A stretch of DNA of 64,000 nucleotides from a virus, in the IMG/VR virus record IMGVR_UViG_3300015360_000025; one strand, written 5' to 3'. Position 1 is the first letter of the stretch. Each line of letters opens with the position of its first letter. Made by a program: the position numbers and the translations under genes. The notes under the pieces were generated by a model. The model ran no database searches, had not been told where the DNA came from, and saw nothing but the letters and a program-made list of their open reading frames with translations. This document shows, piece by piece, positions 1 through 14,516 of the stretch.

Positions 1-3
1 GAA

Positions 4-1035
4 ATGAGACAGATCATTTTGATCTCGTATACTTCTCTGAATGCGGGTGGTGGCGTTCCACGTTGGAACCGTGACTTTGTTGCAGGATTTCCTGGAACTA
101 AACACTATTCATGGGATGACATCCCGAAAGCTCCATTGGGCGTCCAGAACGAATGGGATGGAGCCTTTGCTCTCAACATGTGGTTGCATCTGACAAAGAA
201 GGTGTCAAAGGACGACATCATCATCTCTGATGGCTTTTGGGGAGAACGACTGAGCGACCTGGGTTACAACGTCATTTCGATCGCTCATGGCATCTGGAGC
301 CACCTGACCAAAGACGATGTAGACGCTGGGAAGGATCCTGAGTTTCCTTTCCACAATGCCGTCCAGGTAAAGCACCGTCATGATCATCTGGCCCGTGGTG
401 GGAAGATCGTCGCTGTCTCCAGGTTCATCCAGGAGCAGATGAAGCTCCAGTGGGGTTTTGAATCGAGTGTGATCAACAACGCCATCGATCTCGACAAGTG
501 GAAAAGGCCGGTAGCTCGGATGCCGAACTGGACAGACTCGCGTCTGGTCATCCACGGGGTCACGACTGCCAACAAGGGTTTCGATCACATCGAAGCTGTT
601 AAGAAGGCTCTACCAAACGACGACGTCTGGCTTCTGGATGAGGCTGCCGAAAAGCTCGAACTATCAAAGGTCGACGCCCTCGCTAATGCCGATCTTGTCG
701 TCCAACCATCTGCGTACGAGGGCAACAGCTATTTTGTACTAGAGACTATGGCATGCGACGTCCCTATCGTAGCATACAACGTTGGTCTTCTTCACTCTAT
801 CTCAGTGATAGCAAAGGAGAATGGAATCGAAGCGTGTGTTGGGGCGATCATTGACAGGAAGTATCGTCGACCAGAAGAAACGGCAAAAGTTGCTAGCTTT
901 ATCCTGGACTCCGTCTGTCGTGATCGGAGTACGTATAACCCGAGGCAGGTATCCGAGCTGTTCTCGGTGAAAAGATTCCACGAGCAGTGGCGAGAGTACC
1001 TGGAGGACTATGAGCGTAATATTACGAGTCGATGA
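4..1035 (+). CDS. Glycosyltransferase, GT-B fold (GT4-like)
   Basis: N-terminal GGV motif (NAGGGVPRW), VAVSRF, INNAIDL, and C-terminal PSAYEGNSYFVLETMACDVP with the EX7E motif of retaining GT4 enzymes. Confidence 0.85.
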   Translation: MRQIILISYTSLNAGGGVPRWNRDFVAGFPGTKHYSWDDIPKAPLGVQNEWDGAFALNMWLHLTKKVSKDDIIISDGFWGERLSDLGYNVISIAHGIWSHLTKDDVDAGKDPEFPFHNAVQVKHRHDHLARGGKIVAVSRFIQEQMKLQWGFESSVINNAIDLDKWKRPVARMPNWTDSRLVIHGVTTANKGFDHIEAVKKALPNDDVWLLDEAAEKLELSKVDALANADLVVQPSAYEGNSYFVLETMACDVPIVAYNVGLLHSISVIAKENGIEACVGAIIDRKYRRPEETAKVASFILDSVCRDRSTYNPRQVSELFSVKRFHEQWREYLEDYERNITSR

Positions 1036-1660
1036 CTTCCCAGGTACGAAGCCTGAAGAATTCTGGAAACACAATCTGGATAACTTCAAGCTGTTCGATG
1101 CGGTGTTGGAGAAGTACGTCGATGAATATGTCCTTGGTGTAATCCCGAAATACACGACAGAAGAGATGATTCGTTACCTGGAGCAGAATGACAAGATCAG
1201 GGTCGCCCTCCACGGTGTGGAACACAATGAACGGTTTCCCAATGAATTCAGACCGTGGGAGACCACCGAACAGATCTTCAACAAACTTGTATCTGCCAGA
1301 CAACCTTTCCAGAAGTGTAACGGCGCGCTCGATGTGGTTGACTACATCCCTCCGCACAACGTCATAGACATGAAGACAGTCGATGCTCTGAAGTTGGCTG
1401 GATTCAAGAGAATTTATGGAGGGCCCGGATCTGATGAACACGTAATCTGGCATGCCAAGGACGTGGGATTGAAGTTCGACTACAGCCAGTGGCCGTACTG
1501 GTATGGACGTTCAGATGAACTACTGAACCGAGACAAGGCTCATCTCATGATCAACAGCAATCCTGATCGTGTCGTGACATTGCATTGGCCGTGGGAATGG
1601 AACATCGGACTTGATAACCTCGAAAGGTTCCTCGAGGAGATCAAGGGAGTACTACGTTGA
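1010..1660 (+). CDS. Polysaccharide deacetylase-like (CE4/NodB, DUF2334-like)
   Basis: LRVDDFP (DD motif 1), VALHGVEH (HxxxH metal motif), YIPPHN, TLHW. Confidence 0.75.
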   Translation: MSVILRVDDFPGTKPEEFWKHNLDNFKLFDAVLEKYVDEYVLGVIPKYTTEEMIRYLEQNDKIRVALHGVEHNERFPNEFRPWETTEQIFNKLVSARQPFQKCNGALDVVDYIPPHNVIDMKTVDALKLAGFKRIYGGPGSDEHVIWHAKDVGLKFDYSQWPYWYGRSDELLNRDKAHLMINSNPDRVVTLHWPWEWNIGLDNLERFLEEIKGVLR

Positions 1661-2694
1661 AAAAAACTCTCTTCATAGATGCCAGAAAGGGCGGAGACTT
1701 CACTCTGGACGCGGTCTGGGCTGGGTTGGTAGATCGCAATGGCTTTGAGAACATGATAGACTGGCCACCCTCCGAGAAGCACAGAGAGGGTATCCCGACG
1801 GTGACTGGAGATGTAGAACGCGATTACGGTGCAGAGCGGAGGTCCCTGTGCTACACGTCAGACCACGGACGGCTCCGCAACTACGATGCTCCGCAGATCA
1901 ACGAACTCATCAAGTCTGGACAGATTGAGAGGATCTTCATCGATGAACGAGAAGAATCGTACGTCCTCTACCTCCAACTGGTAGCCCGCTACTACGACAT
2001 CCCGGTCGTGGTTGTGGCCGGTCACGATCGATTCTTGAACACTATCCCGCAGCTTCACAAGTACTATGACAAGAACCTAGAGAAGATTTTTATGGACAAT
2101 TGGCGTCCCGAATACAATTCGTCTTCTGGTGTTTGCCCGATGTCATATGCCACAAATTTTGATCATCTATGGGATGTGTCAGAGAGGGATTCACTGCTGA
2201 ATGATAAGGTGTACGACATCTGCTTCACGGGTTATAATAGCCACGGAGATAGAGGGAAGATCATCGACCACCTTGTCGAGAAGTACGGGGAGAAGGGTAA
2301 CTGCCTCTTCGTAGAGAAGAGACCCAACACGATGGAATGTTTCTTACCAAAGCGGGAGTACTTCAAGAAGATCGCCAAGTCCAGAGTCTGTCTCAATCTC
2401 AGGGGCGCGGCCGAGTGTGGGAAGGCCCTGAGGTTCTATGAGATTCCCTATGTTGGTTCGTACATGCTCTCCCAGAGGGACCAGGCAAACCAAGTCATGC
2501 CTTTCATCTCTCGTATCCACTGCGACTACTTCACGAACATCGAAGAGATGGACGCGATGATCAAATGGGCCTTGGATAATCCAGTCGAACGGGAAGAGAT
2601 CGCACGTTGGGGTTATAGGTACGCGATGGAACACCACACTGCCCGGGCTCGTGTCGATCACATGTACTACAACCTTCGGAATGACTGGGACTGA
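1657..2694 (+). CDS. Glycosyltransferase, CgeB/Glyco_trans_1_2-like
   Basis: C-terminal YDICFTG...YFKKIAKSRVCLN...ALRFYEIPYVGSYMLS...REEIARWGYRYAMEHHTARARV matches the CgeB-like GT tail. Confidence 0.75.
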   Translation: MKKTLFIDARKGGDFTLDAVWAGLVDRNGFENMIDWPPSEKHREGIPTVTGDVERDYGAERRSLCYTSDHGRLRNYDAPQINELIKSGQIERIFIDEREESYVLYLQLVARYYDIPVVVVAGHDRFLNTIPQLHKYYDKNLEKIFMDNWRPEYNSSSGVCPMSYATNFDHLWDVSERDSLLNDKVYDICFTGYNSHGDRGKIIDHLVEKYGEKGNCLFVEKRPNTMECFLPKREYFKKIAKSRVCLNLRGAAECGKALRFYEIPYVGSYMLSQRDQANQVMPFISRIHCDYFTNIEEMDAMIKWALDNPVEREEIARWGYRYAMEHHTARARVDHMYYNLRNDWD

Positions 2695-2695
2695 A

Positions 2696-2965
2696 ATGAA
2701 GACTGTACATGTCATCGGCAACAGCCATGCGTGGTACTTTGCGGGAGCAGAGGTCGGAGTAGACGTCGAAGAAATTCTCCAGAAAGACGATCCTCGACGA
2801 CATCCGTTGATGATGTCTCTGGGAAGTGAGATAGTCGACGCTCGTGGATTTATCAAAGAAGAGTACCAGAAATATCCTGGATCACGTGTTGATGTTCACG
2901 CGGCTCCTGCTAAGGTACAATTAATCGTTCTTGAAAAACTAAAGGTGATACTTGGACAAAGCTGA
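2696..2965 (+). CDS. Short SGNH/GDSL-hydrolase-like ORF, possibly internally deleted
   Basis: ATG at 2696 directly after the upstream stop. VHVIGNSHA resembles SGNH block I and VDVH resembles block V, but the protein is only about 89 aa. Confidence 0.4.
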   Translation: MKTVHVIGNSHAWYFAGAEVGVDVEEILQKDDPRRHPLMMSLGSEIVDARGFIKEEYQKYPGSRVDVHAAPAKVQLIVLEKLKVILGQS

Positions 2966-3755
2966 TCTCTACAACCAGATGGCTGATCGGAAGTTCAAAC
3001 CGAAGGATCTCGAGCCATACGCTGGCGACAACGGTCGAGTGAACAAGGCTTTTGCTCTCTATAAGAGCGGAAAGTTGAAGTCAGGTGGAACGCATGTAGA
3101 CGTCGGAGGAGGGATAGGAGATCTTGGCTTTGCACTCCGTCAGGAGAGGCTCTTCGAGAAGACGCTCACTGTAGATATATCTGCCAAAAATCTACAGGCT
3201 GCCAGTAAGAAGGGAAACTTCGTGATGCTGGCAGACGTGGATAAAAGTGGATTTTCGTCAAACGTGTCTGATCCCGACAACTTCGGTGGTCCACCAGAAT
3301 GGACGAACGACAGCTTTGGGATGAACAGTAACAATCGGATTGATGCGATTTCTGCCCTGGACTTCATCGAACACATCATCGATCCAGGATCTTTCGCATA
3401 TCACTGTGCGTATATGCTCAAATCTGGAGGAGAGGTATTCATCAACACTCCAAACATCCAGTATTGGCGGCACATCGAAAAGTTGATATTCGATGGTCGG
3501 TTTCCTCATACATCTGGAGATCGTGAGGTATACCACGGTGGTCACCTCGCCTTCTTTACGTATCTCGATCTTTGCGAGATCTTCGGTAATGCGGGATTTG
3601 AAAAGTTCGAACAGATCAAGGACGTGGAAGGATACTGCAATCCGTCATCACTTTTCATCGGAAACATTCTGAAACCACAGAATCAACAGCAGTATACAGA
3701 GATGTGCATGAGGATGGGAAACCCAAACTTACTCTTTAAGGCGACCAAGCCTTGA
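2952..3755 (+). CDS. Class I SAM-dependent methyltransferase
   Basis: HVDVGGGIG motif I, LTVDIS, ISALDFIEHI, LKSGGEVFINTPN. Confidence 0.85.
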   Translation: MDKADLYNQMADRKFKPKDLEPYAGDNGRVNKAFALYKSGKLKSGGTHVDVGGGIGDLGFALRQERLFEKTLTVDISAKNLQAASKKGNFVMLADVDKSGFSSNVSDPDNFGGPPEWTNDSFGMNSNNRIDAISALDFIEHIIDPGSFAYHCAYMLKSGGEVFINTPNIQYWRHIEKLIFDGRFPHTSGDREVYHGGHLAFFTYLDLCEIFGNAGFEKFEQIKDVEGYCNPSSLFIGNILKPQNQQQYTEMCMRMGNPNLLFKATKP

Positions 3756-3880
3756 GTTGGCCAAAAGGTAAATCGTGGAATGAGGCTCGTCGAAAAGCTT
3801 TCGTATACCGTCCTCTTGGAAATCACACGGTACAGACAGCTTCGAGACTTCTCTCTTATCTCTCCGAGAGTTCGAAATGA
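3752..3880 (+). pseudogene. Bridging mini-ORF, NUMOD3-like homing endonuclease remnant (42 aa)
   Basis: Hand translation MSWPKGKSWNEARRKAF...SESSK*. TTG start overlaps the upstream TGA and its TGA overlaps the downstream ATG. Confidence 0.5.
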
Positions 3881-4803
3881 GGATACTCTACGGACGTTGC
3901 TTTGGGATCGGAAATTGTGTGATGGCCGTACCCGCCATCAAGGCTCTCCAGTGGAAGCCAGACACGATCGTAGACATCCTCGTTGGGGACACGTCCGATG
4001 ACGTCGGAGCCATCCAAGTGTTGTCCAAGGTGGTACAAGGTCCTGGGAAACTTTGTGTGAACAGCGCCCTCGAGCATGACTACGACGTGGCTGTGATGGC
4101 CATTCCATTTGATGGTCGCTGGCTCAACGGCGTTCACTTTCGAGCCAAGGAAGTCATGGACGGTCGGACCCGACCAGATCCGAAGACGACTGGACTCGTC
4201 TCGTGGAATGATCACGAGTCTGAGTATCAGATGGAGAACGCTAGAAAGCTCGGTTACCTTGGATCGACCCCGTCGTCTCGTTTCCTCCCGTTCACCGGAG
4301 AGGCACTTCCGAATAGGATCTATATCGGAATGGGATACAAAAAAGATCAGTTGGGTTTCTGGAAGAGCAAACACTGGGGAAACGAGAACTACGCCGCACT
4401 CATCACCGGTCTTCTTAAGAACCTCCCTGAGGACTGGAAGATCGTGACGACAGGCGATGTAGGTGATCTCCAGCTTTCCATCGCCCCAGTGGCTCGGATG
4501 GTGAACGACAAGAGGTTTGAGTTCAAGCTTTCCGCCAATTTAGATGAAGCATTCCGAGTAGTCGCCTCCTGCGGGCTATACGTGGGGAACGACACCGGGA
4601 TGATGCATGTCGCCGCCTCCTGTGGGAGGAACGTCGTCGCAATGTTCTTTCTCGAGAACTCTATCGTGAAGAGTCGACCGCTTCTCTCCAGTCAATCAGA
4701 TCGCCCCCTTCAGGAATGCCTCGTACTTGACGGCACCATAGACCGTGCCAAGATTACTCCACAATACGTGCAGACGGCCGTCGAGGTGACACTCTGTGGT
4801 TGA
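3877..4803 (+). CDS. GT9-family glycosyltransferase (ADP-heptose:LPS heptosyltransferase-like)
   Basis: GIGNCVMAVPAIKAL (cf. xIGDxxxxxPxxxxL), SKHWGNENY (cf. KxWPxExF), LYVGNDTGMMHVAASCG (cf. GNDSGPMHLAAA). Confidence 0.85.
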   Translation: MRILYGRCFGIGNCVMAVPAIKALQWKPDTIVDILVGDTSDDVGAIQVLSKVVQGPGKLCVNSALEHDYDVAVMAIPFDGRWLNGVHFRAKEVMDGRTRPDPKTTGLVSWNDHESEYQMENARKLGYLGSTPSSRFLPFTGEALPNRIYIGMGYKKDQLGFWKSKHWGNENYAALITGLLKNLPEDWKIVTTGDVGDLQLSIAPVARMVNDKRFEFKLSANLDEAFRVVASCGLYVGNDTGMMHVAASCGRNVVAMFFLENSIVKSRPLLSSQSDRPLQECLVLDGTIDRAKITPQYVQTAVEVTLCG

Positions 4804-5437
4804 GAAAGAACTGATCAAGGCTTTCAAGTTGATGGCATTAAGAAACGACGTCTTGCAGGACACACACGGGAACCTGTCTGTTTTGGCCAGCGATCAGATC
4901 TACATCAAACCCAGCGGAGTCCCATACGATGAGATCGATATCTGGTCAATCTGCAGGTTCCAGCTTCTCGAGAATGGATCAACGGTCAGCTCCAAGAACA
5001 ATGGATACAAGCCTTCCGTCGATCTGATCCACCATGCTTCTATCTACAAGAACAACCCGCATATCAAGTCCATTTGCCACACACATTCACCGTATGCGGT
5101 CGCCCATGCGATCTGTGGCCTGCCGATTGATTGCCTTTGCACAGAGCACGCTGACTACTTTGGTTGGAGAGTTCCGTGCTTGAGTTACAAAGATCTCGAC
5201 AGTTGGGGATCTGATGTGCGAATACTCGACGGAGCTCGAGCCGTCTTGCTGGAACATCACGGTGCCCTCACGTTCTCAGATGAGCCTGTGAAAGCGGTCA
5301 ATCTTGCGATCCAGTTGGAGAACGTAGCGCGGAAGAATCATCTTGCGATGACTCTCTATCCGAAGCTTCGGATGATGGCATACAATGAATCTCAGAAGTG
5401 GCATGAGAGGTACAATAATGTCTACGGACAACGGTAG
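4796..5437 (+). CDS. Class II aldolase/epimerase, L-ribulose-5-phosphate 4-epimerase (AraD)-like
   Basis: GNLS, IKPSGVPY, PSVD, HTHSPYA and LEHHG Zn-binding histidines. Confidence 0.8.
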   Translation: MVEKELIKAFKLMALRNDVLQDTHGNLSVLASDQIYIKPSGVPYDEIDIWSICRFQLLENGSTVSSKNNGYKPSVDLIHHASIYKNNPHIKSICHTHSPYAVAHAICGLPIDCLCTEHADYFGWRVPCLSYKDLDSWGSDVRILDGARAVLLEHHGALTFSDEPVKAVNLAIQLENVARKNHLAMTLYPKLRMMAYNESQKWHERYNNVYGQR

Positions 5438-5870
5438 GAAGATTTTAATCTCGTCTGATCACAACGGGAATGCCGCCCGTGCGTACATTATCAAGTTCCT
5501 TAGGGCTGACGGTTACGATGTCCAGGATCTTGGCCCGAACTACGATCAGAAGGTCGATTACCCAGAAATGGCTGCCGACCTTTGCCACGCGCTGGAGAAG
5601 ATTTACGGTGCGCGGGGCATCCTTCTATGCGGTACGGGCACTGGGATGTTGATCGCAGCCAATCGGTTTCCGCATATCCGCGCAGGATTGGCGACTGACC
5701 GAGCGACCGCCGAACTGATGCGCCAACACAACGATTGCAACGTTTTAGTTCTTGGACAGTGGCGCACCCCGTTGGGGCAGATGGACGAACTCATCAGGAC
5801 ATTCTTGACCACGCCGTTTGAAGAAGGTCGTCACATCGATCGGGTCGAATCTCTCGGTAGACTTCCATGA
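5418..5870 (+). CDS. rpiB: Ribose-5-phosphate isomerase B (RpiB/LacAB family)
   Basis: SDHNG, DYP, LCGTGTG with catalytic Cys, ANRFPHIRA, RQHNDCNVLVLG, FEEGRHIDR. Start trimmed to the ATG at 5418. Confidence 0.9.
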   Translation: MSTDNGRKILISSDHNGNAARAYIIKFLRADGYDVQDLGPNYDQKVDYPEMAADLCHALEKIYGARGILLCGTGTGMLIAANRFPHIRAGLATDRATAELMRQHNDCNVLVLGQWRTPLGQMDELIRTFLTTPFEEGRHIDRVESLGRLP

Positions 5871-6808
5871 ATGTATTGGTCATCGGGGACGTCGTCATCG
5901 ATCGGTACACACACGGCAATCGTCGGGGGATTTCCGCAGAGACCCCAACGATCGTAGCCAACTTCATCAAGGAAGACGTCTTCGTTGGTGGAGCTGGGTT
6001 GGTTACGCGGAACCTTCTACGTCTGGGAAACACGGTGACCCTCCTCACTGTTGGAAACTGCGAAGAACTCCATCCACTCATGTTGAGGTCAGCCGATCCT
6101 ATTGATAGATTCGAATCCGCAAGATTGAGTGTCATTATGACAAATAAGAACGGGTGGAAGGTTTCCGAAAAACATCGGTACTATGTCGAGCAGTACAAGC
6201 TTCTGCAATACGATCTGATCAATCCTGGAAAGTGGACTCCACATGAAGAGGACCGTTACGCCGAACAAATCATGTACCAACTTGTAGCTTTGAGTTACGA
6301 TGCGGTTGTGATATGCGACAATAGACACGGCGTGATGATCGAACATTTCGCCAGCAAAATCATCGAACGTTGCCATGTCCAGAACAAACCGGTGTACGTA
6401 GACTCCCAGGTCTCTCAGGCAGAATCAAACCATCACTGGTACAAGGGTGCCAGTTTTATCTTCATGAATGAGATAGAAGCCGATTGCGCGGCGAAGAAGA
6501 TTAAGAAACTCAAGAAGGGTGATGCCCAGCTCAACCAGCTGTCGAAGTTTCTCAAGGCAAGCATCGTTTACAAAAGAGGGGAACGTGGGGCCATCACTGT
6601 CTGCCAAGACGGGAAGACGATCGTGTCAGAAGGTTTTGAAGTAAACGCTGTCGATACGTGCGGTGCTGGTGACGCTTTCCTCGCAGCTTTCGTTCATCAC
6701 GGGAACGACCTGGAAGCTGCGAACCGGTGGGCTGCGTTGTCAACTACTTATAAGGGGACCATCGTCCCTAGGACTGAAGACTTGCATCTTCGAAAGGTGA
6801 CGCGATGA
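5867..6808 (+). CDS. PfkB-family sugar-phosphate kinase, HldE/RfaE domain I-like (copy 1)
   Basis: VLVIGDVVIDRY, ISAETP, GGAGLVTRNL, VDTCGAGDAF anion-hole motif. Confidence 0.85.
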   Translation: MNVLVIGDVVIDRYTHGNRRGISAETPTIVANFIKEDVFVGGAGLVTRNLLRLGNTVTLLTVGNCEELHPLMLRSADPIDRFESARLSVIMTNKNGWKVSEKHRYYVEQYKLLQYDLINPGKWTPHEEDRYAEQIMYQLVALSYDAVVICDNRHGVMIEHFASKIIERCHVQNKPVYVDSQVSQAESNHHWYKGASFIFMNEIEADCAAKKIKKLKKGDAQLNQLSKFLKASIVYKRGERGAITVCQDGKTIVSEGFEVNAVDTCGAGDAFLAAFVHHGNDLEAANRWAALSTTYKGTIVPRTEDLHLRKVTR

Positions 6809-7476
6809 AATTGTTACTTGACACGGCAAACATCGATCAGATCCGTCTGTTCATGCAGAGCACTATGCTGGCTGGGGTGACCACCAATCCGTCCCTCATG
6901 GCGAAGGAATCTAAGGGAGATTACGTAGAGAAACTCAAGACGATCGCTGAAGCTGTCCAAAATCAGTTGAGCGCCAGGCACCTAAGCGTTGAGGTGACTA
7001 CACTTGATCCGAATGTGATGATCGTGGAAGCCCAAACTCTCAATGATGCTCTCGGAAGAAATGGAGTTGATGTTCACATCAAGATTCCAGTGATGATGGA
7101 GACCATGAGAGTGATATCCACGCTCAGGCGAAAAGACGTTAAGGTAAATGCCACCGCTTGTATGACCGCATTCCAAGCCAAAATGGCGATGGACGCTGGA
7201 GCAAATATCGTCTCGTTCTTTTATAACAGGATCAAGGATGAAAATGAGAGTCCAGATAGTGTGCTTACGCTCTTCAATCAGATTAGAGTCAATCTAGAAC
7301 AGACGAAGATAATTTGCGGTAGCATAAGAGAACCAGACGATGTTCGGCGCTGTTTTCTTCAGGGAGCTGATTATGTAACCGTCAGCCCAGCCATTCTACA
7401 GAAGATGATCGAGCATCCTCAGACTACCAAAGCTATCGCCCAATTCCAGAAGGATATCGACTCATGGCTCAGTTAA
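6805..7476 (+). CDS. tal: Transaldolase (TalC/FSA-type, short form)
   Basis: LLLDTAN, GVTTNPSL, IKIP Schiff-base Lys, VNAT, GSIR. Glu in SVEV and Phe in SFFYNR are the transaldolase rather than FSA signature. Confidence 0.9.
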   Translation: MKLLLDTANIDQIRLFMQSTMLAGVTTNPSLMAKESKGDYVEKLKTIAEAVQNQLSARHLSVEVTTLDPNVMIVEAQTLNDALGRNGVDVHIKIPVMMETMRVISTLRRKDVKVNATACMTAFQAKMAMDAGANIVSFFYNRIKDENESPDSVLTLFNQIRVNLEQTKIICGSIREPDDVRRCFLQGADYVTVSPAILQKMIEHPQTTKAIAQFQKDIDSWLS

Positions 7477-7835
7477 CTAAGATTCCAATGGGTGGGCAGT
7501 TTCGTATGCTCCGAGGATGGGGGTATGAAACGTGGATTGAGAATCTCCCAGAGTACTGTGGAAAGATTCTGCATGTCTACAAGGGACTGCGCGGGTCCCT
7601 ACACTTTCATATGAATAAGATGGAAACTATGTACCTCCAGTCTGGAAAGGTTCAGCTTCGTTTTGTAGACCCGGAGAAGGGTACCGACTATACGATCGAC
7701 CTGAATCCTGGTGATTCGATTCTGATACCACGCGGGCAGGTTCATCAGATCATTGGAATTGAAGAGAGTGATCTCTTTGAGTTTAGCACCGTGCATGAAG
7801 AGTCAGACTCTCATCGAGTTCAGAAGGGGGACTGA
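7464..7835 (+). CDS. Cupin, sugar isomerase/epimerase-like (mannose-6-P isomerase / D-lyxose isomerase-like)
   Basis: GWGYETWI, SLHFHMNKMET cupin motif 1, GDSILIPRGQVHQI motif 2. Confidence 0.75.
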   Translation: MAQLTKIPMGGQFRMLRGWGYETWIENLPEYCGKILHVYKGLRGSLHFHMNKMETMYLQSGKVQLRFVDPEKGTDYTIDLNPGDSILIPRGQVHQIIGIEESDLFEFSTVHEESDSHRVQKGD

Positions 7836-8722
7836 TGCGTTGGAACATTGTCGGGGCATTCATCCGGAATAATCCCTTTGGGACAGAGATCGCTTTTCGG
7901 AAGGGTCTCGAGAGGATCGGAGAGACTGTGACGGCGGTGGACCCAGGTTACCCCAACCAACAGTTTGATGAAGCTCCAGACGTCACCTTGGTGTTCAAGT
8001 GGGTGGACACGGGACCGTATCGCGATAAAATCGTCTCTCTACCTGGGAAAAAGGTCCTCTACCAGGTTGATGATCTCCGTTTTCCGCACATTAAACAGAT
8101 GATGCTCGAGATGAGATCGGTGTGTAACAATGCGCTGACTTTCGATCAAGATGGAGCAAACCTTGCTCTTGAGTACGGGTACGATTCGGGGCAACGTCTA
8201 TTGTTGACTGCCGATAATCTCCTTTACCGTCATATCACCGGAATGCAGAAGGATATCGATGTTAGTTTTGTTGGAAGTCTGTCGAATGGTCCGAATCATG
8301 CCAGCCGCATGAGGATGATTCAACTTGTTAAGGGAATCCCTGGCCTGCGAGTAGTGATCGCCAGCGAGCTCTTCGACATCGGAAAACTCTGTGAGATCTA
8401 CAATCGTTCCAAGGTTGTCCTGAATCACGCGACAGATGTTGGTCAACCTTTCGGTCATGGGTTTGGGTATCAGTGTCGACACTTCGAAGCCGGGTTCACC
8501 AAGACTTGCATCCTTTCGAACAAGATTGACAACGACGAGACATTGGGATTCATACCGTTCTTTTCGAATGAGTTGGAGCTCGTTGAACGTCTTAAGACAC
8601 TTCTTAACGAACAGAAGCGCAGGGAGTTATATGCACAGTTGACTTACGATCAGCTCTATAAATCACACCTTCCAGAACACCGCGCCAAAGAGATGATCGA
8701 GTTTGTACGGAGTGTCCGGTGA
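7835..8722 (+). CDS. Glycosyltransferase, CgeB/Glyco_trans_1_2-like
   Basis: DIDVSFVGS, IYNRSKVVLN, CRHFEAG, HLPEHRAKEM. Confidence 0.75.
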   Translation: MRWNIVGAFIRNNPFGTEIAFRKGLERIGETVTAVDPGYPNQQFDEAPDVTLVFKWVDTGPYRDKIVSLPGKKVLYQVDDLRFPHIKQMMLEMRSVCNNALTFDQDGANLALEYGYDSGQRLLLTADNLLYRHITGMQKDIDVSFVGSLSNGPNHASRMRMIQLVKGIPGLRVVIASELFDIGKLCEIYNRSKVVLNHATDVGQPFGHGFGYQCRHFEAGFTKTCILSNKIDNDETLGFIPFFSNELELVERLKTLLNEQKRRELYAQLTYDQLYKSHLPEHRAKEMIEFVRSVR

Positions 8723-9312
8723 AGATCAATCTTGGGTGCGGGCCCGATTTGAAAGATGGCCACGTGAACGTCGACTTCAGGGATCTTCCAGGAGTGACGA
8801 AAGTAGATCTCTCCATATTTCCGTGGCCATGGGCTGACGATTCCGCTGATCAGATCTTGATGTTGGATTTTCTGGAACACTTCCCGTACAGGAAGACGAC
8901 TACTATCCTTCGTGAGTGTTGGCGTGTCCTGAAGATGGGTGGGAACCTCGAAGTCCAGGTTCCAGACCTCGAACATTGCGCGCGCGCTGCAGCAATGACA
9001 GGACCATTCCTGTGTAACAGGTGTGGATGGCAGTATCCGATGCACGACCTTCGGGCAGACTTCTTCATCTGCAAGCAGTGTAAGCAACCGTGGACAGAGT
9101 GTGCCCAAGCTGCCATCCACCGTTTGTACGGTGGTCAGGACTACGAAGGAAATTGGCATCACACAGCCTTCACGACTCTCCAGCTGAACAGGTTGTTGCA
9201 GGGGCACGGGTTCGAAGACATCCGCGAGCTGGAGCACGAGCACCAGTACAAGAATTGGAATTTCAAGTTTTCTGCCACAAAGATGAAAGACCTGTGGGGT
9301 GATGAACCGTGA
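8719..9312 (+). CDS. SAM-dependent methyltransferase with a CxxC...CxxC insertion
   Basis: KINLGCG, HVNVD, DFLEHF, WRVLKMGG, inserted CNRC...CKQC, LYGGQ..GNWH. Confidence 0.8.
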   Translation: MKINLGCGPDLKDGHVNVDFRDLPGVTKVDLSIFPWPWADDSADQILMLDFLEHFPYRKTTTILRECWRVLKMGGNLEVQVPDLEHCARAAAMTGPFLCNRCGWQYPMHDLRADFFICKQCKQPWTECAQAAIHRLYGGQDYEGNWHHTAFTTLQLNRLLQGHGFEDIRELEHEHQYKNWNFKFSATKMKDLWGDEP

Positions 9313-10268
9313 ACGACTGGAAAGGAAAGAACGTCCTTGTCACAGGGGCCGCCGGTTTCATCGGTGGCTGCGTAGCTCGTGAGCTTCTTGATCAAGAGGC
9401 TATTGTGACGTGTCTCATCAGGACGAAGGGAAAGAATCCGAATCTCCTGGGGGCGAAGATATTCGAAGGGGATGTGGCGGACTACGCCTTGATGTGTGAG
9501 ATCATCTCTTCGGGAGAAATTGAGTACGTCTTTCATCTGGCGGCAAACGCCATCGTCAGGGTCGGGGCTCGGGATCCGATGAACACATACCGAATCAACG
9601 TGATGGGTACGGTCGCCCTCCTTGAGGCAGTCCGTACGGTTGGCCGATGCAAGAAGGTAGTCGTGGCTTCGAGTGACAAAGCCTACGGTGATCACGATAT
9701 CCTTCCGTACAAGGAGGACATGGCACTCCAACCGAAGAACACGTACGATACTTCCAAGGCTTGCGCAGACATGATCGCGCGCTCGTATGCCCACAACTAC
9801 GATCTTCCGATCGTCGTCACACGTTGCAGCAACGTCTATGGTCCTCGGGATCCTAATATGTCGAGGATCATCCCCAACACGATCAATCGAATTCTGGAAG
9901 GCAAGAAGCCGCAGCTTTATTCGGACGTCAGCGTCATGGAGAGAGAGTTTATCTTCATCGACGACGTGGTCGTTGCCAACTTGGCCCTCGCTCTATCTGG
10001 TCCAGAGACAAACGGGGAGGCATTCAACGTCGGTAGGAACCACGCTCACATGGTTTCGACCGTGGTCGAACAGATCTCCAAGATGATGGGCTTCGAAGAC
10101 GGAGTCGAGATCGTTCCTCGCGAGCCCTCCTTCAAGGAAATCCAGAAGCAGTACATCAGCGCTCGAAAGCTCGAAGAGGCGACCGAATGGAGCGCGCGGG
10201 TCCAACTCATCGACGGTCTGAGGAAGACGATCGACTGGTATAAGGTATTCGGGAGAAGTGACCGATGA
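9309..10268 (+). CDS. NAD-dependent NDP-sugar dehydratase/epimerase (extended SDR, CDP-glucose 4,6-dehydratase-like)
   Basis: TGAAGFIG, HLAA, SSDKAYG, YDTSK (YxxxK), TRCSNVYGP. Confidence 0.9.
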   Translation: MNDWKGKNVLVTGAAGFIGGCVARELLDQEAIVTCLIRTKGKNPNLLGAKIFEGDVADYALMCEIISSGEIEYVFHLAANAIVRVGARDPMNTYRINVMGTVALLEAVRTVGRCKKVVVASSDKAYGDHDILPYKEDMALQPKNTYDTSKACADMIARSYAHNYDLPIVVTRCSNVYGPRDPNMSRIIPNTINRILEGKKPQLYSDVSVMEREFIFIDDVVVANLALALSGPETNGEAFNVGRNHAHMVSTVVEQISKMMGFEDGVEIVPREPSFKEIQKQYISARKLEEATEWSARVQLIDGLRKTIDWYKVFGRSDR

Positions 10269-11302
10269 GAGTTGCCTTCGTCGGGGTCAAGCGTAAGTAC
10301 CAAGAGTTGGCGCCTGAGTACAAAGACTTCTTCAATCAGTATCATCTGGAGCTTCCGTACTACTACGCTCGACATGGACAGAATCATGTCACGATCACGA
10401 CCGTCGATCATGATTCTCCTCCCATCCGTTTTGCCCGAGATTATTCCGATTTCCTGGAATGCCAGACGGAAGAGAAGTACAAGATCGAAGGTCGTAGATA
10501 CGATGTCGTCGTGCACTGGCGTAAGTGGTTCCCCGAGTTACGTAAAGAAGGTACCATCAATCTTCTCAACTGTCAGGATCACTCGTTCAGTCAAGAATGG
10601 AAAGACAGTGTCCGTCAAGCGATGAACGCTGGTCAGCTGCATGGAATACTCTGTTTTCCGACCTGGCACAAGCAGAATATCCACGAAGAGACTGGCATCC
10701 CGCTCGATAGGCTTTTCGATGGAGTCACCCTGGGAGTAGACACTGAAGTTTATAAACCAGCTCTCGTTAAAGATCCATTCCAGATGCTGTGGGCATCCGA
10801 TCCTGGGCGCGGTCTAACTCAAGCGATGTGTCTCGCTGCCGAACTCTTCCAGAGAGACAAGCGGTTTAGACTTCACGTCTGTGTTCCAGACTACGTCAAG
10901 ATGAACTCTTCTCCTTTCAACCACCCAGCGATCGCCTGGCATGGGTGCGTCCCGAATGGTCCGAAGCTCTGGGAGCTCTTCAACAGTTCCGGGATCCTCC
11001 CGTACACTTCTTGCTTCAAAGAGCCGTCTTCCCGGGCCCATCGGCAGGCCCAGGCGGCAGGGTGCCTGGTTCTCTACCCTCCTGGTATGGGAACACCCTC
11101 CGAACTCATCCAGCATGAACGGACGGGCATCGTGGAGCCAATCGGTCAATGGACGGAACGGATTCGAAACTTTGCCGTCCACAGAGAACGTACTGAGATC
11201 GGACCGCAGGCCCGTGAGTTTGCGATCACGGAAAACTGGGAAGTGCAGGCGCAGAACTTCAATCGTCTCATCGAAAAGATCAAGGGAGAACAAAATGATT
11301 GA
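10265..11302 (+). CDS. Glycosyltransferase, GT-B (GT4-like)
   Basis: WASDPGRGL, LYPP..GTPSELI, EPSSRAHRQAQAAG (EX7Q variant of EX7E). Confidence 0.7.
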   Translation: MRVAFVGVKRKYQELAPEYKDFFNQYHLELPYYYARHGQNHVTITTVDHDSPPIRFARDYSDFLECQTEEKYKIEGRRYDVVVHWRKWFPELRKEGTINLLNCQDHSFSQEWKDSVRQAMNAGQLHGILCFPTWHKQNIHEETGIPLDRLFDGVTLGVDTEVYKPALVKDPFQMLWASDPGRGLTQAMCLAAELFQRDKRFRLHVCVPDYVKMNSSPFNHPAIAWHGCVPNGPKLWELFNSSGILPYTSCFKEPSSRAHRQAQAAGCLVLYPPGMGTPSELIQHERTGIVEPIGQWTERIRNFAVHRERTEIGPQAREFAITENWEVQAQNFNRLIEKIKGEQND

Positions 11303-11931
11303 CATCAACGCGAAATCATATTTATCGTGTGAAGACGCGTTATGCGCTGTACCTTATTCTTGATCCATGTTCTGGTATGCCGCGATACGTTGGAATGACA
11401 ACGCGCGGGTTTCATCGGAGAACGAGTGAACATCTAAAAGCAATTCACGACAAGCGATTTAAGACACATCTTTATTTCTGGCTGAGAGTTCTTCATAGCA
11501 AAGGATTGAAACCTTTCTTCGAACTTGTCCGTTGCTTTGAGGAAAGTACTCGAGGGGAAGAAGCTCTTTGTGACGCAGAGATTGATTTTATTTCTCTTCG
11601 TTCTGCGGGAGCGGACTTAACAAATACTGCTCGTGGTGGAAAGGGTAAATCGAGTAACGGTAGAGTGCCTTGGAATAAAGGAAAGTCGGGTGTGTCAGCA
11701 GAGACAAGTGAAAAGATGCGGTCTGAAAAAGTTGGGAAAGTCTCCCCGCGGAAAGGTGTCATTCTCTCTTCGGAAACAAAAGAAAAATTGAGAGTTTCTC
11801 ATCTCGGAAAAGCTGCTTCACCAGAGACAAAAGAAAAGATGAGTTTGACCCATAGGTTAATTTGGAAAAGGAGAAAAAATGCCAGTAGATATCAACTCGA
11901 CGGACTTCATGCAGACATTCAAACTGGCTGA
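11299..11931 (+). mobile_element. Free-standing GIY-YIG homing endonuclease with NUMOD3 repeats (start may be GTG 11329)
   Basis: YALYLILDP...RYVGMT (GIY-YIG variant), conserved R..H and E/N, C-terminal PWNKGK, SAETSEKM, SSETKEKL, SPETKEKM repeats. Visibly AT-richer than its flanks. Confidence 0.8.
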
Positions 11932-12802
11932 CGCCACTGTCGGGGTGGTCGGTCATGGATTCGTGGGACAGGCGGTCGCAGAATTCTTCAAGGGAACGTG
12001 CGGAAACATCGTCATCAACGACAAGGCGAAACCGGAACTGGCGACCCTGAAGGAGGTCGTGACCCGGTCCGAACTGATCTTCGTCTGCGTCCCGACCCCG
12101 ATGCGGAAGGACGGATCATGCTACACAGGGTTCGTGGAAGAGGTGATCGCGAACATCAAGACCACCGCCCAGGAGATCAAGAGGAATTTCGATTCCTTCG
12201 TGGTCGTGGTCAAGAGCACGGTCTACCCGGGATTCATCGAAGATATGCAGAGCAAGCATCTCCCGATGAGGCTGACCTTCTCTCCCGAGTTCATTACGGA
12301 GAAGAATAGCGTCGAAGACTTCAAGAAAACAAACAGGATCATCGTAGGTGGGGATGAGGACGACGCGATGATTGTCCTGAAATACTTTCACGATGTTGAT
12401 CCAAAAAGGATCGAGGATGGTCGACGCGTCCTTCTTCAGTGCAATCCAACAACGGCCGAGATGGTAAAACTCTATGCCAACGGGATTTTGACCGCGAAGG
12501 TCATTTTCTCGAACGAGGTCTACCAGATCTGTCAGAAGCTTGGAGTTGACTTCGAAGAGGTCAGGGCAATATCAGTCCTGGATACTCGAATCGGAACGGG
12601 GCATACTCTTGTCCCTGGCCCAGACGGCCAACTGGGATACGGTGGTCACTGCTTCCCCAAAGACATCCAGAACCTCAGAGCTACAGCTCGGGTGTGCGAA
12701 GTTCCGGAGAAGCTATTTACCGCGATGATCGATCGCAATGAAGAGCTGAGAGAGAAGAAGGACTGGCTAGATATGAAAGAACGGGCTGTCACGGAGAACT
12801 GA
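11879..12802 (+). CDS. ugd: UDP-glucose/GDP-mannose 6-dehydrogenase family (lacks C-terminal domain)
   Basis: GVVGHGFVG, FVCVPTP, VVKSTVYPG, FSPEF, AEMVKLYAN, GYGGHCFPKD catalytic Cys. Confidence 0.9.
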   Translation: MPVDINSTDFMQTFKLADATVGVVGHGFVGQAVAEFFKGTCGNIVINDKAKPELATLKEVVTRSELIFVCVPTPMRKDGSCYTGFVEEVIANIKTTAQEIKRNFDSFVVVVKSTVYPGFIEDMQSKHLPMRLTFSPEFITEKNSVEDFKKTNRIIVGGDEDDAMIVLKYFHDVDPKRIEDGRRVLLQCNPTTAEMVKLYANGILTAKVIFSNEVYQICQKLGVDFEEVRAISVLDTRIGTGHTLVPGPDGQLGYGGHCFPKDIQNLRATARVCEVPEKLFTAMIDRNEELREKKDWLDMKERAVTEN

Positions 12803-13134
12803 TGCCTACGCTTGTCATGGACATGGATGGGACAATCTGCGAGCAGATGCATGGCGATGGGTATTTTATCGCCAGACCCATTCAATTCGTGATCGATAAA
12901 ATGAGATCATACAAACTCAAGGGATGGGATATTGTAATCCACACCGCCCGTGGCATGGGACGTTATGATGGAAACATCGCTCGCATCGAGTTTGAGTTTC
13001 GTTACAAGACGGAGAAGTGGTTACGAGATCACGGCGTCCCATATGATAAGCTGATCTTCGGGAAGCCTGCCGGAGACATCTACGTGGATGACAAGGGGAT
13101 AGTACCTGATGACTTTGCGACCAGAGACGCTTGA
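12802..13134 (+). CDS. HAD phosphatase, capsule-biosynthesis (BcbF/EcbF-like)
   Basis: MDMDGT motif I, HTARG, FGKP, YVDDK motif IV. Confidence 0.85.
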   Translation: MPTLVMDMDGTICEQMHGDGYFIARPIQFVIDKMRSYKLKGWDIVIHTARGMGRYDGNIARIEFEFRYKTEKWLRDHGVPYDKLIFGKPAGDIYVDDKGIVPDDFATRDA

Positions 13135-13609
13135 AAGTGAATCCTACAAAGAGCTTTGCGAATCGATTCGTGCTGAGGGTCGCAAGAAATATGGTTCCCA
13201 GGGGTACTCTCGAGTGGTCTTCGCTAATGGCGTCTTTGATCTTCTTCATTTGGGTCACCTTTCTCTCCTGAACGAGTGTCGAATCTTGGCTGGTCCAAAT
13301 GGCGCCGTTGTCGTCGGAGTGAATTCTGATGCGTCTGTGAAGAGGATCAAAGGTCCCAACAGACCCATCCTGGACGAGGTCACCCGGTGTTCCACTTTGA
13401 TCTTCATGAAGCCGGTGGATCACGTCTTGACATTCGATGAAGACACCCCACTCGAACTGGTGGAAGTTCTCCGTCCTGACGTTATCGTCAAGGGATCTGA
13501 ATACAGAAACAAGAAGGTCGTCGGTTCACACTTGGCTGTCGTGACGTACGTCGATAGTAAGGAAGGCATCTCGACGACCCAGCTGATCGAGAGGATCCGC
13601 AATGGATGA
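13109..13609 (+). CDS. Nucleotidyltransferase, HldE/RfaE domain II-like (heptose-1-P adenylyltransferase-like)
   Basis: VFANGVFDLLHLGH (HxGH), VGVNSDASVKRIKGPNRPI, FDEDTP, PDVIVKG, ISTTQLIERI. Confidence 0.9.
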   Translation: MTLRPETLESESYKELCESIRAEGRKKYGSQGYSRVVFANGVFDLLHLGHLSLLNECRILAGPNGAVVVGVNSDASVKRIKGPNRPILDEVTRCSTLIFMKPVDHVLTFDEDTPLELVEVLRPDVIVKGSEYRNKKVVGSHLAVVTYVDSKEGISTTQLIERIRNG

Positions 13610-14516
13610 ACCAAAAAAGATACTCGTGGTTGGTGATGTGATGATCGACAAGTACATCTTCGCCATGACTTCTCGTCAAGCTCCAGAGGCGCCAATACCG
13701 GTGTGGGACGAGGTGGCATATGAGCTCCGTCTCGGTGGAGCGGCCAACGTCGCTAACAACCTGAAGGCTCTGGGCGGGGATGAGGTCGAAGTCTATCTGG
13801 CGGGTATCGTTGGTTTGATCGACAAGAAGATGATCTCCCGGGCAGGCATCAACACAATCTTGTGCGCCGGCAATGAGTCGATGTACAAGACCAGGTACAT
13901 CGACTCACACAGCAAGAAGCACATGTTCCGTGTCGACAATATTCGGACATTCTCTCCAGAGTCTAAGACACATTTTCTCCGTTGCCTACAACACTTTCTC
14001 AGGGGTCACGTGTTCGATGCGGTCATCTTCTCCGACTACGATAAAGAGACCATCAATCTTGACGTGATGGAGATCGTCATCCCCACTTCCAAATTGACTG
14101 TTGTAGACTCGAAGCGGACAGATCTTTCCATGTACAAGGGTGCGCAATTGCTCAAGATCAATGAATACGAGTATGCGACACAACTTTCTCGTGGTCCGTA
14201 TCTCAACGTCGAGAGTCTGTTCGACTACGTTGTCGTAACCCATGGCTCAAAGGGCGCTGAGCTACGGCAGCATGAAGTGACAAAGAGTGATGAGAGACGA
14301 TACATGGTCCATAGCGAAAACTTCGCCGTCGACCCTGTGAATGTTCAAGACGTGACTGGATGTGGTGACACCCACACGGCAGCCATGACGTTTTCTTTAT
14401 TGAAAAACCAGGACGTCCGCTTGGCTGTTCGATTCGCCAATGCTTGCTCTAGGAATGTCGTACAGAAGTTTGGCACCAGCGTAAGTGATGTCAGCTTGGC
14501 TAGCATTGGTGTATAA
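13602..14516 (+). CDS. PfkB-family sugar-phosphate kinase, HldE/RfaE domain I-like (copy 2)
   Basis: ILVVGDVMIDKY, APEAPIPV, LGGAANVANNL, SDYDK, DVTGCGDTH. Confidence 0.9.
   Translation: MDEPKKILVVGDVMIDKYIFAMTSRQAPEAPIPVWDEVAYELRLGGAANVANNLKALGGDEVEVYLAGIVGLIDKKMISRAGINTILCAGNESMYKTRYIDSHSKKHMFRVDNIRTFSPESKTHFLRCLQHFLRGHVFDAVIFSDYDKETINLDVMEIVIPTSKLTVVDSKRTDLSMYKGAQLLKINEYEYATQLSRGPYLNVESLFDYVVVTHGSKGAELRQHEVTKSDERRYMVHSENFAVDPVNVQDVTGCGDTHTAAMTFSLLKNQDVRLAVRFANACSRNVVQKFGTSVSDVSLASIGV

Follow-up and report, generated by a model that had tools for sequence, protein, structure and literature searches.

ADP-heptose, a precursor of the lipopolysaccharide core, is also sensed by ALPK1 as a potent signal of innate immunity. 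The canonical pathway runs through an isomerase, an anomeric kinase, a distal phosphatase and a nucleotidyltransferase, and a glycosyltransferase of family GT9 is found alongside. A comparable series of genes is present in a glycan cluster of the IMG/VR virus record IMGVR_UViG_3300015360_000025, which comes from a 187,020-bp contig of an uncultured phage. The window, that is the whole stretch of DNA that was analysed, spans 64,000 nucleotides. Its kinase (PfkB) and its transferase (cytidylyltransferase-like) are homologous to the canonical enzymes, although they are encoded by separate genes and score under the equivalog cut-offs. The remaining two enzymes differ: where the canonical pathway uses the SIS-domain isomerase GmhA, the window encodes a metal cupin of 123 residues, and where it uses the phosphatase GmhB, the window encodes a cap-less HAD protein of 110 residues without the GmhB zinc loop. 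From sequence comparisons and structure models, we propose, with a probability of about 0.68, that this cupin and this mini-HAD stand in for GmhA and GmhB in a GmhA-free heptose activation pathway, to which a block of accessory genes is attached in a detachable manner, and that the RpiB-type isomerase of this block is not the replacement of GmhA.

Other described systems resemble the locus in part. The phages HY126, RB69 and DLP3 encode an isomerase, a kinase, a phosphatase and a transferase for a UDP-D-arabinofuranose route, in which the small HAD protein AfhF takes the 5-phosphate off D-arabinose-1,5-bisphosphate (PMC13326640). In that route, unlike here, the isomerase is a SIS protein (arabinose-5-phosphate isomerase), the kinase/pyrophosphorylase AfhE joins a kinase of the APH/choline-kinase type to a transferase of the NTP_transferase type, and the sugar is placed onto DNA cytosines, whereas the neighbours of the window genes are polysaccharide-type glycosyltransferase and virion genes. 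The GDP-octose branch of lincomycin biosynthesis includes a dedicated transaldolase within a module of isomerase (LmbN), kinase (LmbP), phosphatase (LmbK) and transferase (LmbO). This transaldolase, LmbR, joins a C3 unit to ribose-5-phosphate to form octulose-8-phosphate (PMC5854111). The transaldolase aside, every enzyme of the branch comes from another family than its counterpart in the window. Finally, the cupin phosphomannose isomerases of Thermococcus (7zvy/7zvm) and the D-lyxose isomerases are single-domain metal cupins of similar size with an analogous type of reaction, from a ketose phosphate to a C2 'manno' aldose phosphate, but their identity to the window cupin is only 21-23% and the profile E-value about 1e-3.

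The cupin as candidate isomerase

Genes were called from Pfam and NCBIfam profile scores set against the family cut-offs. The original prediction described HldE-type kinase and nucleotidyltransferase domains and a GT9 protein in the window together with an absence of GmhA and GmhB, and both profile and six-frame searches agree with it. No match to either protein was obtained by phmmer with E. coli queries among all six-frame open reading frames of at least 40 residues, and a profile of 14 bacterial and archaeal GmhA sequences found none at E<=10 among window frames of at least 35 residues. The 7 kb upstream of the window, known from an overlapping assembly contig (L003), contain no SIS gene; glycosyltransferases and a short-chain dehydrogenase/reductase (SDR) are encoded there. 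The genes for RpiB (from 5418), the cupin (from 7464) and the HAD protein (from 12802, overlapping the nucleotidyltransferase gene) were likewise found on the + strand where they had been placed.

In the proposed pathway, the cupin (7464-7835, + strand; Cupin_1 40 bits and Cupin_2 33 bits, both over cut-off) would isomerise sedoheptulose-7-phosphate. Kinase 2, a PfkB protein resembling domain I of HldE (13602-14516, +; rfaE_dom_I, TIGR02198, 171 bits against a cut-off of 345), would then phosphorylate heptose-7-phosphate at O1, and the HAD protein (12802-13134, +; EcbF-BcbF family TIGR01689, 88 bits against 162) would remove the 7-phosphate. The last step, nucleotidylation of heptose-1-phosphate, would fall to an HldC-like transferase resembling domain II of HldE (13109-13609, +; rfaE_dom_II, TIGR02199, 135 bits against 181.5), in which the motifs HxGH and ISTT are present and whose gene is overlapped by the HAD gene over 26 nucleotides. 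The activated sugar would feed the glycosyltransferases of a phage glycan cluster of about 22 kb. Its likely user among them is the GT9 protein of the heptosyltransferase family (3877-4803, +; PF01075, 42 bits against 22), which adjoins the cassette throughout the window lineage; in NCBIfam it matches heptosyltransferase II best, with 43 bits, far under the cut-off.

Either RpiB or the cupin had been offered as the substitute of GmhA. The cupin half of this suggestion is favored by positional and phyletic complementarity, by gene fusions and by the orthology of the associated kinases, whereas RpiB is absent from relatives that keep the pathway. When one genome per species was scanned, 45 cellular genomes proved to have the cupin, which in three cases is fused to the C-terminus of the kinase. 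In the candidate phyla radiation (CPR), in DPANN and in Methanosarcinales, it is the first gene of operons that also encode the kinase, GmhB and the nucleotidyltransferase. The kinases of such operons reach 353 bits (cut-off 345), and with NF006506 (cut-off 178) their GmhB scores 181 bits in locus L104 and 171 bits in L128. A protein of 307 residues is encoded between cupin and kinase in several operons of DPANN and Methanosarcinales (e.g. L131:10372-11295), its sole match in L131 being a weak one to a deoxyhypusine-synthase-like Rossmann fold.

GmhA and the cupin appear to replace each other at the same place. Twelve of the 151 Patescibacteria genomes sampled carry an rfaE_dom_I kinase; SIS_2/GmhA lies immediately 5' of it in ten, and the other two have no GmhA but the cupin (144 and 152 bits) immediately 5' of the kinase. 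Among 201 DPANN genomes, 46 have a kinase above 200 bits. GmhA was found in 29 of these 46, being fused to the kinase or no more than 3 kb away in 26, and the cupin, taken at 80 bits or more, in 11, being fused to the kinase or at most about 1 kb upstream of it in seven; six genomes have neither of the two and none has both. The pooled CPR and DPANN counts (n = 58: both 0, cupin only 13, GmhA only 39, neither 6) give a Fisher p of 8.6e-9, a value without phylogeny correction for counts that are not phylogenetically independent and that come from incomplete metagenome-assembled genomes (MAGs). The kinase fusions have the same architecture with an alternative C-terminal domain, GmhA in proteins of 506-521 residues and the cupin in proteins of about 446-449 residues (open frames of 438-457 residues). 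Kinase and GmhA form single frames in the DPANN contigs G257:C2, G208:C5, G327:C8, G304:C11 and G289:C1; the kinase-cupin fusions are those of L123, L124, L126, G243 and G219. In five larger bacterial genomes (Planctomycetota, 'delta proteobacteria' and Terriglobia) the cupin is encoded apart from an HldE-type kinase, and a GmhA-sized SIS_2 protein was found in none of the five. Judged from gene content, this cellular pattern is the one expected if the cupin has displaced GmhA as a non-orthologous substitute.

The kinases were compared in a quick maximum-likelihood tree, with E. coli HldE taken from the MG1655 annotation. Cupin-linked and GmhA-linked kinases, E. coli HldE included, are interleaved in one clade with 97% support, which indicates orthologous kinases served by either isomerase. 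The clade of kinase 2 is sister to the cellular HldA/HldE kinases, again including E. coli HldE, and kinase 2 is kept in every relative of the window phage. An archaeal kinase gave no blastn match in E. coli genomes.

The window cupin itself has every residue that is invariant in the cellular cupins found in the place of GmhA. The metal site His47-x-His49...Glu54...His94 is invariant in 20 homologues and in the lineage, cyanophage and cellular groups, and about 20 further residues do not vary across the window lineage, cyanophage and cellular copies. In the cupin tree, the window copy groups with the cyanophage and cellular type and not with the divergent cupin of a marine cassette built on an RpiB fusion (cassette A, discussed below), which has a long branch, a glutamate for the first metal histidine and changes at about nine otherwise invariant positions. 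Homologues at 55-74% identity are found on many long contigs. The AlphaFold2 model (predicted local distance difference test, pLDDT, 93) is a single jelly-roll with a two-His/Glu/His site. Small phosphomannose isomerases of archaea and lyxose isomerases align with it over almost their whole length. The phosphomannose isomerase reaction is the six-carbon analogue of the GmhA reaction. With this analogue among the aligned cupins, the chemistry is plausible, and the fold is no proof of it. From these comparisons, the 123-residue cupin, rather than RpiB, is the likely GmhA substitute, that is the sedoheptulose-7-phosphate isomerase. No publication was found that links a cupin to sedoheptulose-7-phosphate isomerase or to the heptose genes of cyanophages.

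Alternatively, the phage could draw on the GmhA and GmhB of its host, in which case the cupin would be a CapF-like epimerase of nucleoside diphosphate (NDP)-sugars or a phosphomannose isomerase, and the HAD protein an unrelated phosphatase. gmhA and gmhB are present in most Gram-negative hosts, the cupin fold fits CapF and the cupin phosphomannose isomerases about equally well, and an SDR gene adjoins the cupin in some relatives and cyanophages. This alternative is nevertheless unlikely: it is at odds with the mutual exclusion of cupin and GmhA in the 58 CPR and DPANN genomes, where both are adjacent or fused to the kinase, with the orthology of the kinases linked to them, with the genomes that combine HldE and the cupin without a GmhA-sized SIS protein, and with the nearest characterised relative of the HAD protein, which acts on a sugar 1,n-bisphosphate.

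The mini-HAD and the phage module

The motifs DxDGT, T-A-R, K and DD of the HAD protein are all invariant. A Foldseek search with its AlphaFold2 model (pLDDT 92) returned first the uncharacterised Vibrio cholerae protein 1xpj (37% identity), followed by AfhF of phage HY126 (9iqw; 29% identity, template modeling (TM) score 0.76) and then by E. coli GmhB (E 2.6e-4). By analogy, the AfhF step is a GmhB-type step on another sugar. The hhalign comparison with GmhB has a probability of 83% over the N-terminal 72 columns only (motifs I-II), and the zinc-binding Cys/His loop of GmhB (CxH...CxC) is missing; in sequence, the HAD protein is a remote relative only of GmhB. The two phosphatases never occur together in the loci examined, the mini-HAD being found in phage modules and in bacterial operons headed by an RpiB fusion and GmhB in the CPR and DPANN operons, and E. 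coli GmhB has no match in 166 viral loci. The suggestion that a BcbF-type HAD replaces GmhB is upheld in that AfhF is its nearest characterised structural relative and that it fills the GmhB slot in phage modules. The 110-residue protein is proposed here to be the heptose-1,7-bisphosphate 7-phosphatase. A 2024 cross-kingdom survey of heptose enzymes is reported in commentaries to have been based on homology to the four canonical enzymes, and a commentary on it notes that the phosphatase appeared to be absent in viruses (PMC11461863). The mini-HAD is the obvious candidate for this missing phosphatase.

Cupin and mini-HAD belong to a recurrent phage module. In about 50 of 80 IMG/VR loci selected by their cupin, the genes for the nucleotidyltransferase, a kinase of the kinase 2 type, a BcbF-type HAD and the cupin are contiguous, in many cases with an SDR gene after them. 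The same run is found in cultured cyanomyophages, including P-SSM2, P-SSM5, S-SM2, S-CAM1, S-CAM3, S-T4 and P-TIM68. SIS_2 (PF13580) is encoded in none of three related phage genomes (the complete S-T4 genome and two IMG/VR records rated 97% and 100% complete), all of which have kinase, transferase, HAD and cupin. By tblastn, GmhA has only 13 matches among 50,697 phage records, none of them in a cupin-bearing phage. The annotation of these genes is often misleading. Cyanophage records give the cupin as 'cysteine dioxygenase' or 'nucleotidyltransferase'. The 'phosphoheptose isomerase 1' of S-T4 (L002:11554-11901) was considered as a phage GmhA and rejected, being a BcbF-type HAD; the records of Sf-CH5 and Sf-CH8 appear to mislabel the HAD likewise ('phosphoheptose isomerase'), and the names of kinase and transferase are swapped in the S-T4 record.

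Besides the uncorrected Fisher test, several observations weigh against a heptose pathway run by cupin and mini-HAD. The kinase, transferase and HAD of the window all score under the NCBIfam equivalog cut-offs. Fold searches and profile searches of the Protein Data Bank match the cupin only to generic metal cupins, namely oxalate decarboxylase, quercetinase, the CapF cupin domain, archaeal phosphomannose isomerase and lyxose isomerase. Since oxalate decarboxylase and quercetinase outscore the isomerases, the reaction cannot be assigned from the fold by itself, and matches this generic do not tell an isomerase from a CapF-like epimerase. No kinase is encoded within 10 kb of the cupin in about half of the cellular cupin loci and in some phage loci. 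The cupin operon and a separate HddA-GmhA-GmhB operon occur together in one Methanosarcinales MAG (G006), and in L052, which alone among the viral loci has a SIS gene, a related cupin adjoins this gene.

Both of the last two loci have features of their own. In G006, the cupin operon comprises cupin, kinase, GmhB and transferase. The separate operon (L134:478-3201) is compact and encodes an HddA-type GHMP heptose kinase, GmhA, GmhB and a TalC/FSA transaldolase; by its gene content, this is a heptose route of the alpha type that has a transaldolase of its own. In L052, on an IMG/VR contig of 186 kb, a glycosyltransferase, a phosphomannose isomerase-type cupin, the SIS protein, a transketolase split into an N half and a Pyr+C half, a HAD and a shikimate-dehydrogenase-like protein are encoded in a row (1131-6385). 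With the SIS gene beside the split transketolase, the HAD and the dehydrogenase, L052 looks like a different pathway, which may serve for a chain-extended or branched sugar.

The RpiB accessory block

Four genes of the + strand between those for GT9 and the cupin make up the accessory block (4796-7476). They encode an AraD-like class II aldolase/epimerase (4796-5437; PF00596, 125 bits; NF005123, L-ribulose-5-phosphate 4-epimerase subfamily, 141 bits against a cut-off of 251), the RpiB-type sugar-phosphate isomerase (5385/5418-5870, the start being probably at 5418 rather than 5385; NF004051, 146 bits against 135; TIGR00689, 139 bits against 88), kinase 1 (5867-6808; PfkB, resembling domain I of HldE, rfaE_dom_I 118 bits against 345) and a transaldolase of the TalC/FSA type (6805-7476; PF00923, 141 bits; TIGR00875, 148 bits, under cut-off), the 3' end of whose gene overlaps the start of the cupin gene by 13 nucleotides. 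Apart from RpiB, these genes are not named in the original prediction. TIGR02198 is the best family for both window kinases, and the catalytic motifs DH, CGTG, HN and RHxxR of RpiB are intact.

In the window lineage, the four genes are gained or lost as one block. It is absent from the relatives L006, L007, L012, L015, L016 and L021, in which cupin, HAD, nucleotidyltransferase, kinase 2 and GT9 persist. In another relative (L005), RpiB is fused to a second transferase resembling HldE domain II (rfaE_dom_II). Such a fusion was found in at least 120 proteins having both domains, with invariant RpiB catalytic residues, and by sequence the block is related to a separate and widespread cassette built on it. 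In about 57 IMG/VR contigs, the fusion heads genes for kinase 1, usually the AraD-like protein, the cupin, the transaldolase and the HAD; in L142, L143 and L149 a set of separate transferase, kinase 2 and second cupin follows the fusion cassette. On two bacterial contigs (299 and 484 kb) it heads an operon with a kinase of the kinase 1 type, a bicupin, a transaldolase and a mini-HAD, and one of these two operons adjoins an extra transferase and a GT9 gene. The marine cassette may or may not include the AraD-like gene, the bacterial operon lacks it, and the TalC/FSA-type transaldolase and RpiB always occur together in the cassette. Kinase 1 belongs to a separate clade (100% support) that also holds the kinases from the RpiB-fusion cassette and from the bacterial operons L138 and L140.

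This distribution bears on the reading in which RpiB is the sedoheptulose-7-phosphate isomerase. RpiB is an intact aldose-ketose isomerase, and many genomes encode it in fusion with a nucleotidyltransferase of the heptose type. As a GmhA substitute it was rejected, for neither the modules of cyanophages, CPR and DPANN nor several of the close relatives in which the cupin pathway persists encode it, and wherever it is present, it is accompanied by a cupin; this assignment is very improbable. Both isomerases occur in operons with a single kinase, from which it follows that RpiB and the cupin are not alternatives for one step.

The original prediction also allowed for a product that is not a heptose. 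This is a possibility for the block of AraD-like protein, RpiB, kinase 1 and transaldolase only. More generally, the block would either make a second activated sugar with the shared cupin, HAD and transferase, or top up sedoheptulose-7-phosphate.

The second sugar could be an activated pentose. RpiB and then the cupin would convert ribose-5-phosphate through ribulose-5-phosphate to D-arabinose-5-phosphate, and the PfkB kinase, the AfhF-like HAD and the transferase would lead on to NDP-arabinose. GmhA and arabinose-5-phosphate isomerase are both SIS enzymes that make a 'C2-left' aldose. Such a route would account for RpiB and the cupin in operons with a single kinase, and it finds a precedent in the AfhE/AfhF route known in T-even-like phages (PMC13326640), the HAD resembling AfhF as stated above. 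It is improbable all the same, as it assigns no role to the transaldolase, GT9 as well as kinase and transferase belong to heptose-type families, the cupin pathway is kept in relatives without RpiB, and cellular cupin operons have a GmhB of equivalog level and a heptose kinase.

An octose is the reading that uses every enzyme of the block, in parallel with the octose branch of lincomycin biosynthesis. A reaction of the LmbR type would give RpiB a role as supplier of ribose-5-phosphate. The route would lead from ribulose-5-phosphate to ribose-5-phosphate (RpiB), octulose-8-phosphate (transaldolase) and octose-8-phosphate, and on to the 1,8-bisphosphate, octose-1-phosphate and NDP-octose, and the AraD-like protein could be an optional C4 epimerase in it. 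By this analogy, NDP-octose made with the shared cupin, HAD and transferase is a possible, still tentative product of the block.

Alternatively, the block may only boost the supply of sedoheptulose-7-phosphate in the manner of pentose-phosphate auxiliary genes, with kinase 1 as a redundant paralogue and heptose as the one sugar made. In support of this, the transaldolase gene overlaps the start of the cupin gene, a TalC gene lies within the archaeal HddA-GmhA-GmhB operon L134, and TalC is a common auxiliary gene of cyanophages (PMC7378029). A mere supply function is doubtful, however, in that ribose-5-phosphate, the product of RpiB, is no transaldolase substrate for sedoheptulose-7-phosphate synthesis, and neither the deeply diverged second kinase, which always travels with the block, nor the widespread RpiB-nucleotidyltransferase fusion is explained by it. 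Among these readings of the block, the octose is rated slightly above the supply function and the pentose well below both, with a share about as large as that of the octose left to other functions.

The surrounding cluster and its significance

The genes described above are part of a co-directional run on the + strand (1-14516), in which genes overlap or abut and directly downstream of which baseplate and tail-fibre genes are found. The cluster begins about 7 kb upstream of the window, where L003 adds a glycosyltransferase, an SDR and a protein of 1085 residues combining GT4, GT9 and GT2 domains (L003:3297-6554, about 4 kb upstream of the window start). In L003 and the window together, the cluster has roughly nine glycosyltransferase domains and adjoins the baseplate and tail-fibre genes. 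By their Pfam and NCBIfam matches, the genes before GT9 encode, in order, a GT4 protein, a DUF2334 protein, a glycosyltransferase and a methyltransferase.

Between the cupin and the HAD genes, all on the + strand, a glycosyltransferase and a methyltransferase gene precede that of an SDR of the nucleotide-sugar dehydratase/epimerase kind (9309-10268; PF01370, 180 bits). It scores 166 bits as dTDP-glucose 4,6-dehydratase and 105 bits as heptose 6-epimerase, both under the cut-offs, and is a possible modifier of the NDP-heptose. The next gene (10265-11302) encodes a protein of 345 residues without a Pfam match, kept at the same position in all 18 lineage relatives examined. It is followed by a NUMOD3 homing endonuclease gene (11299-11931), which overlaps the start of the gene for a UDP-glucose/GDP-mannose dehydrogenase-like protein (11879-12802). 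The endonuclease looks recently inserted, since the flanking genes abut without it in the relatives L005 and L006. The dehydrogenase-like protein, of 307 residues, has the N-terminal and central domains only; with counterparts of 302 residues in L005 and 359 residues in L006 and L007, it appears to be a conserved short variant and not a truncation.

If the proposed pathway is true, a cupin isomerase and a mini-HAD phosphatase would close the phosphatase gap of viral heptose pathways. The cupin is a testable candidate for a new enzyme activity, and recurrent mis-annotations of the HAD and the cupin in cyanophages are corrected. Under the proposed pathway, heptose would be made without gmhA in the abundant marine cyanophages, in many uncultured soil and freshwater phages, and in CPR, DPANN, Planctomycetota and others, and genome-based calls of 'no heptose pathway' would miss these organisms. 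If the octose reading of the block were true as well, it would also hold for the related cassette with the RpiB fusion in marine phages and soil bacteria, and octoses would be widespread surface or virion sugars of phages and bacteria, made by enzymes unrelated to those of the lincomycin pathway.

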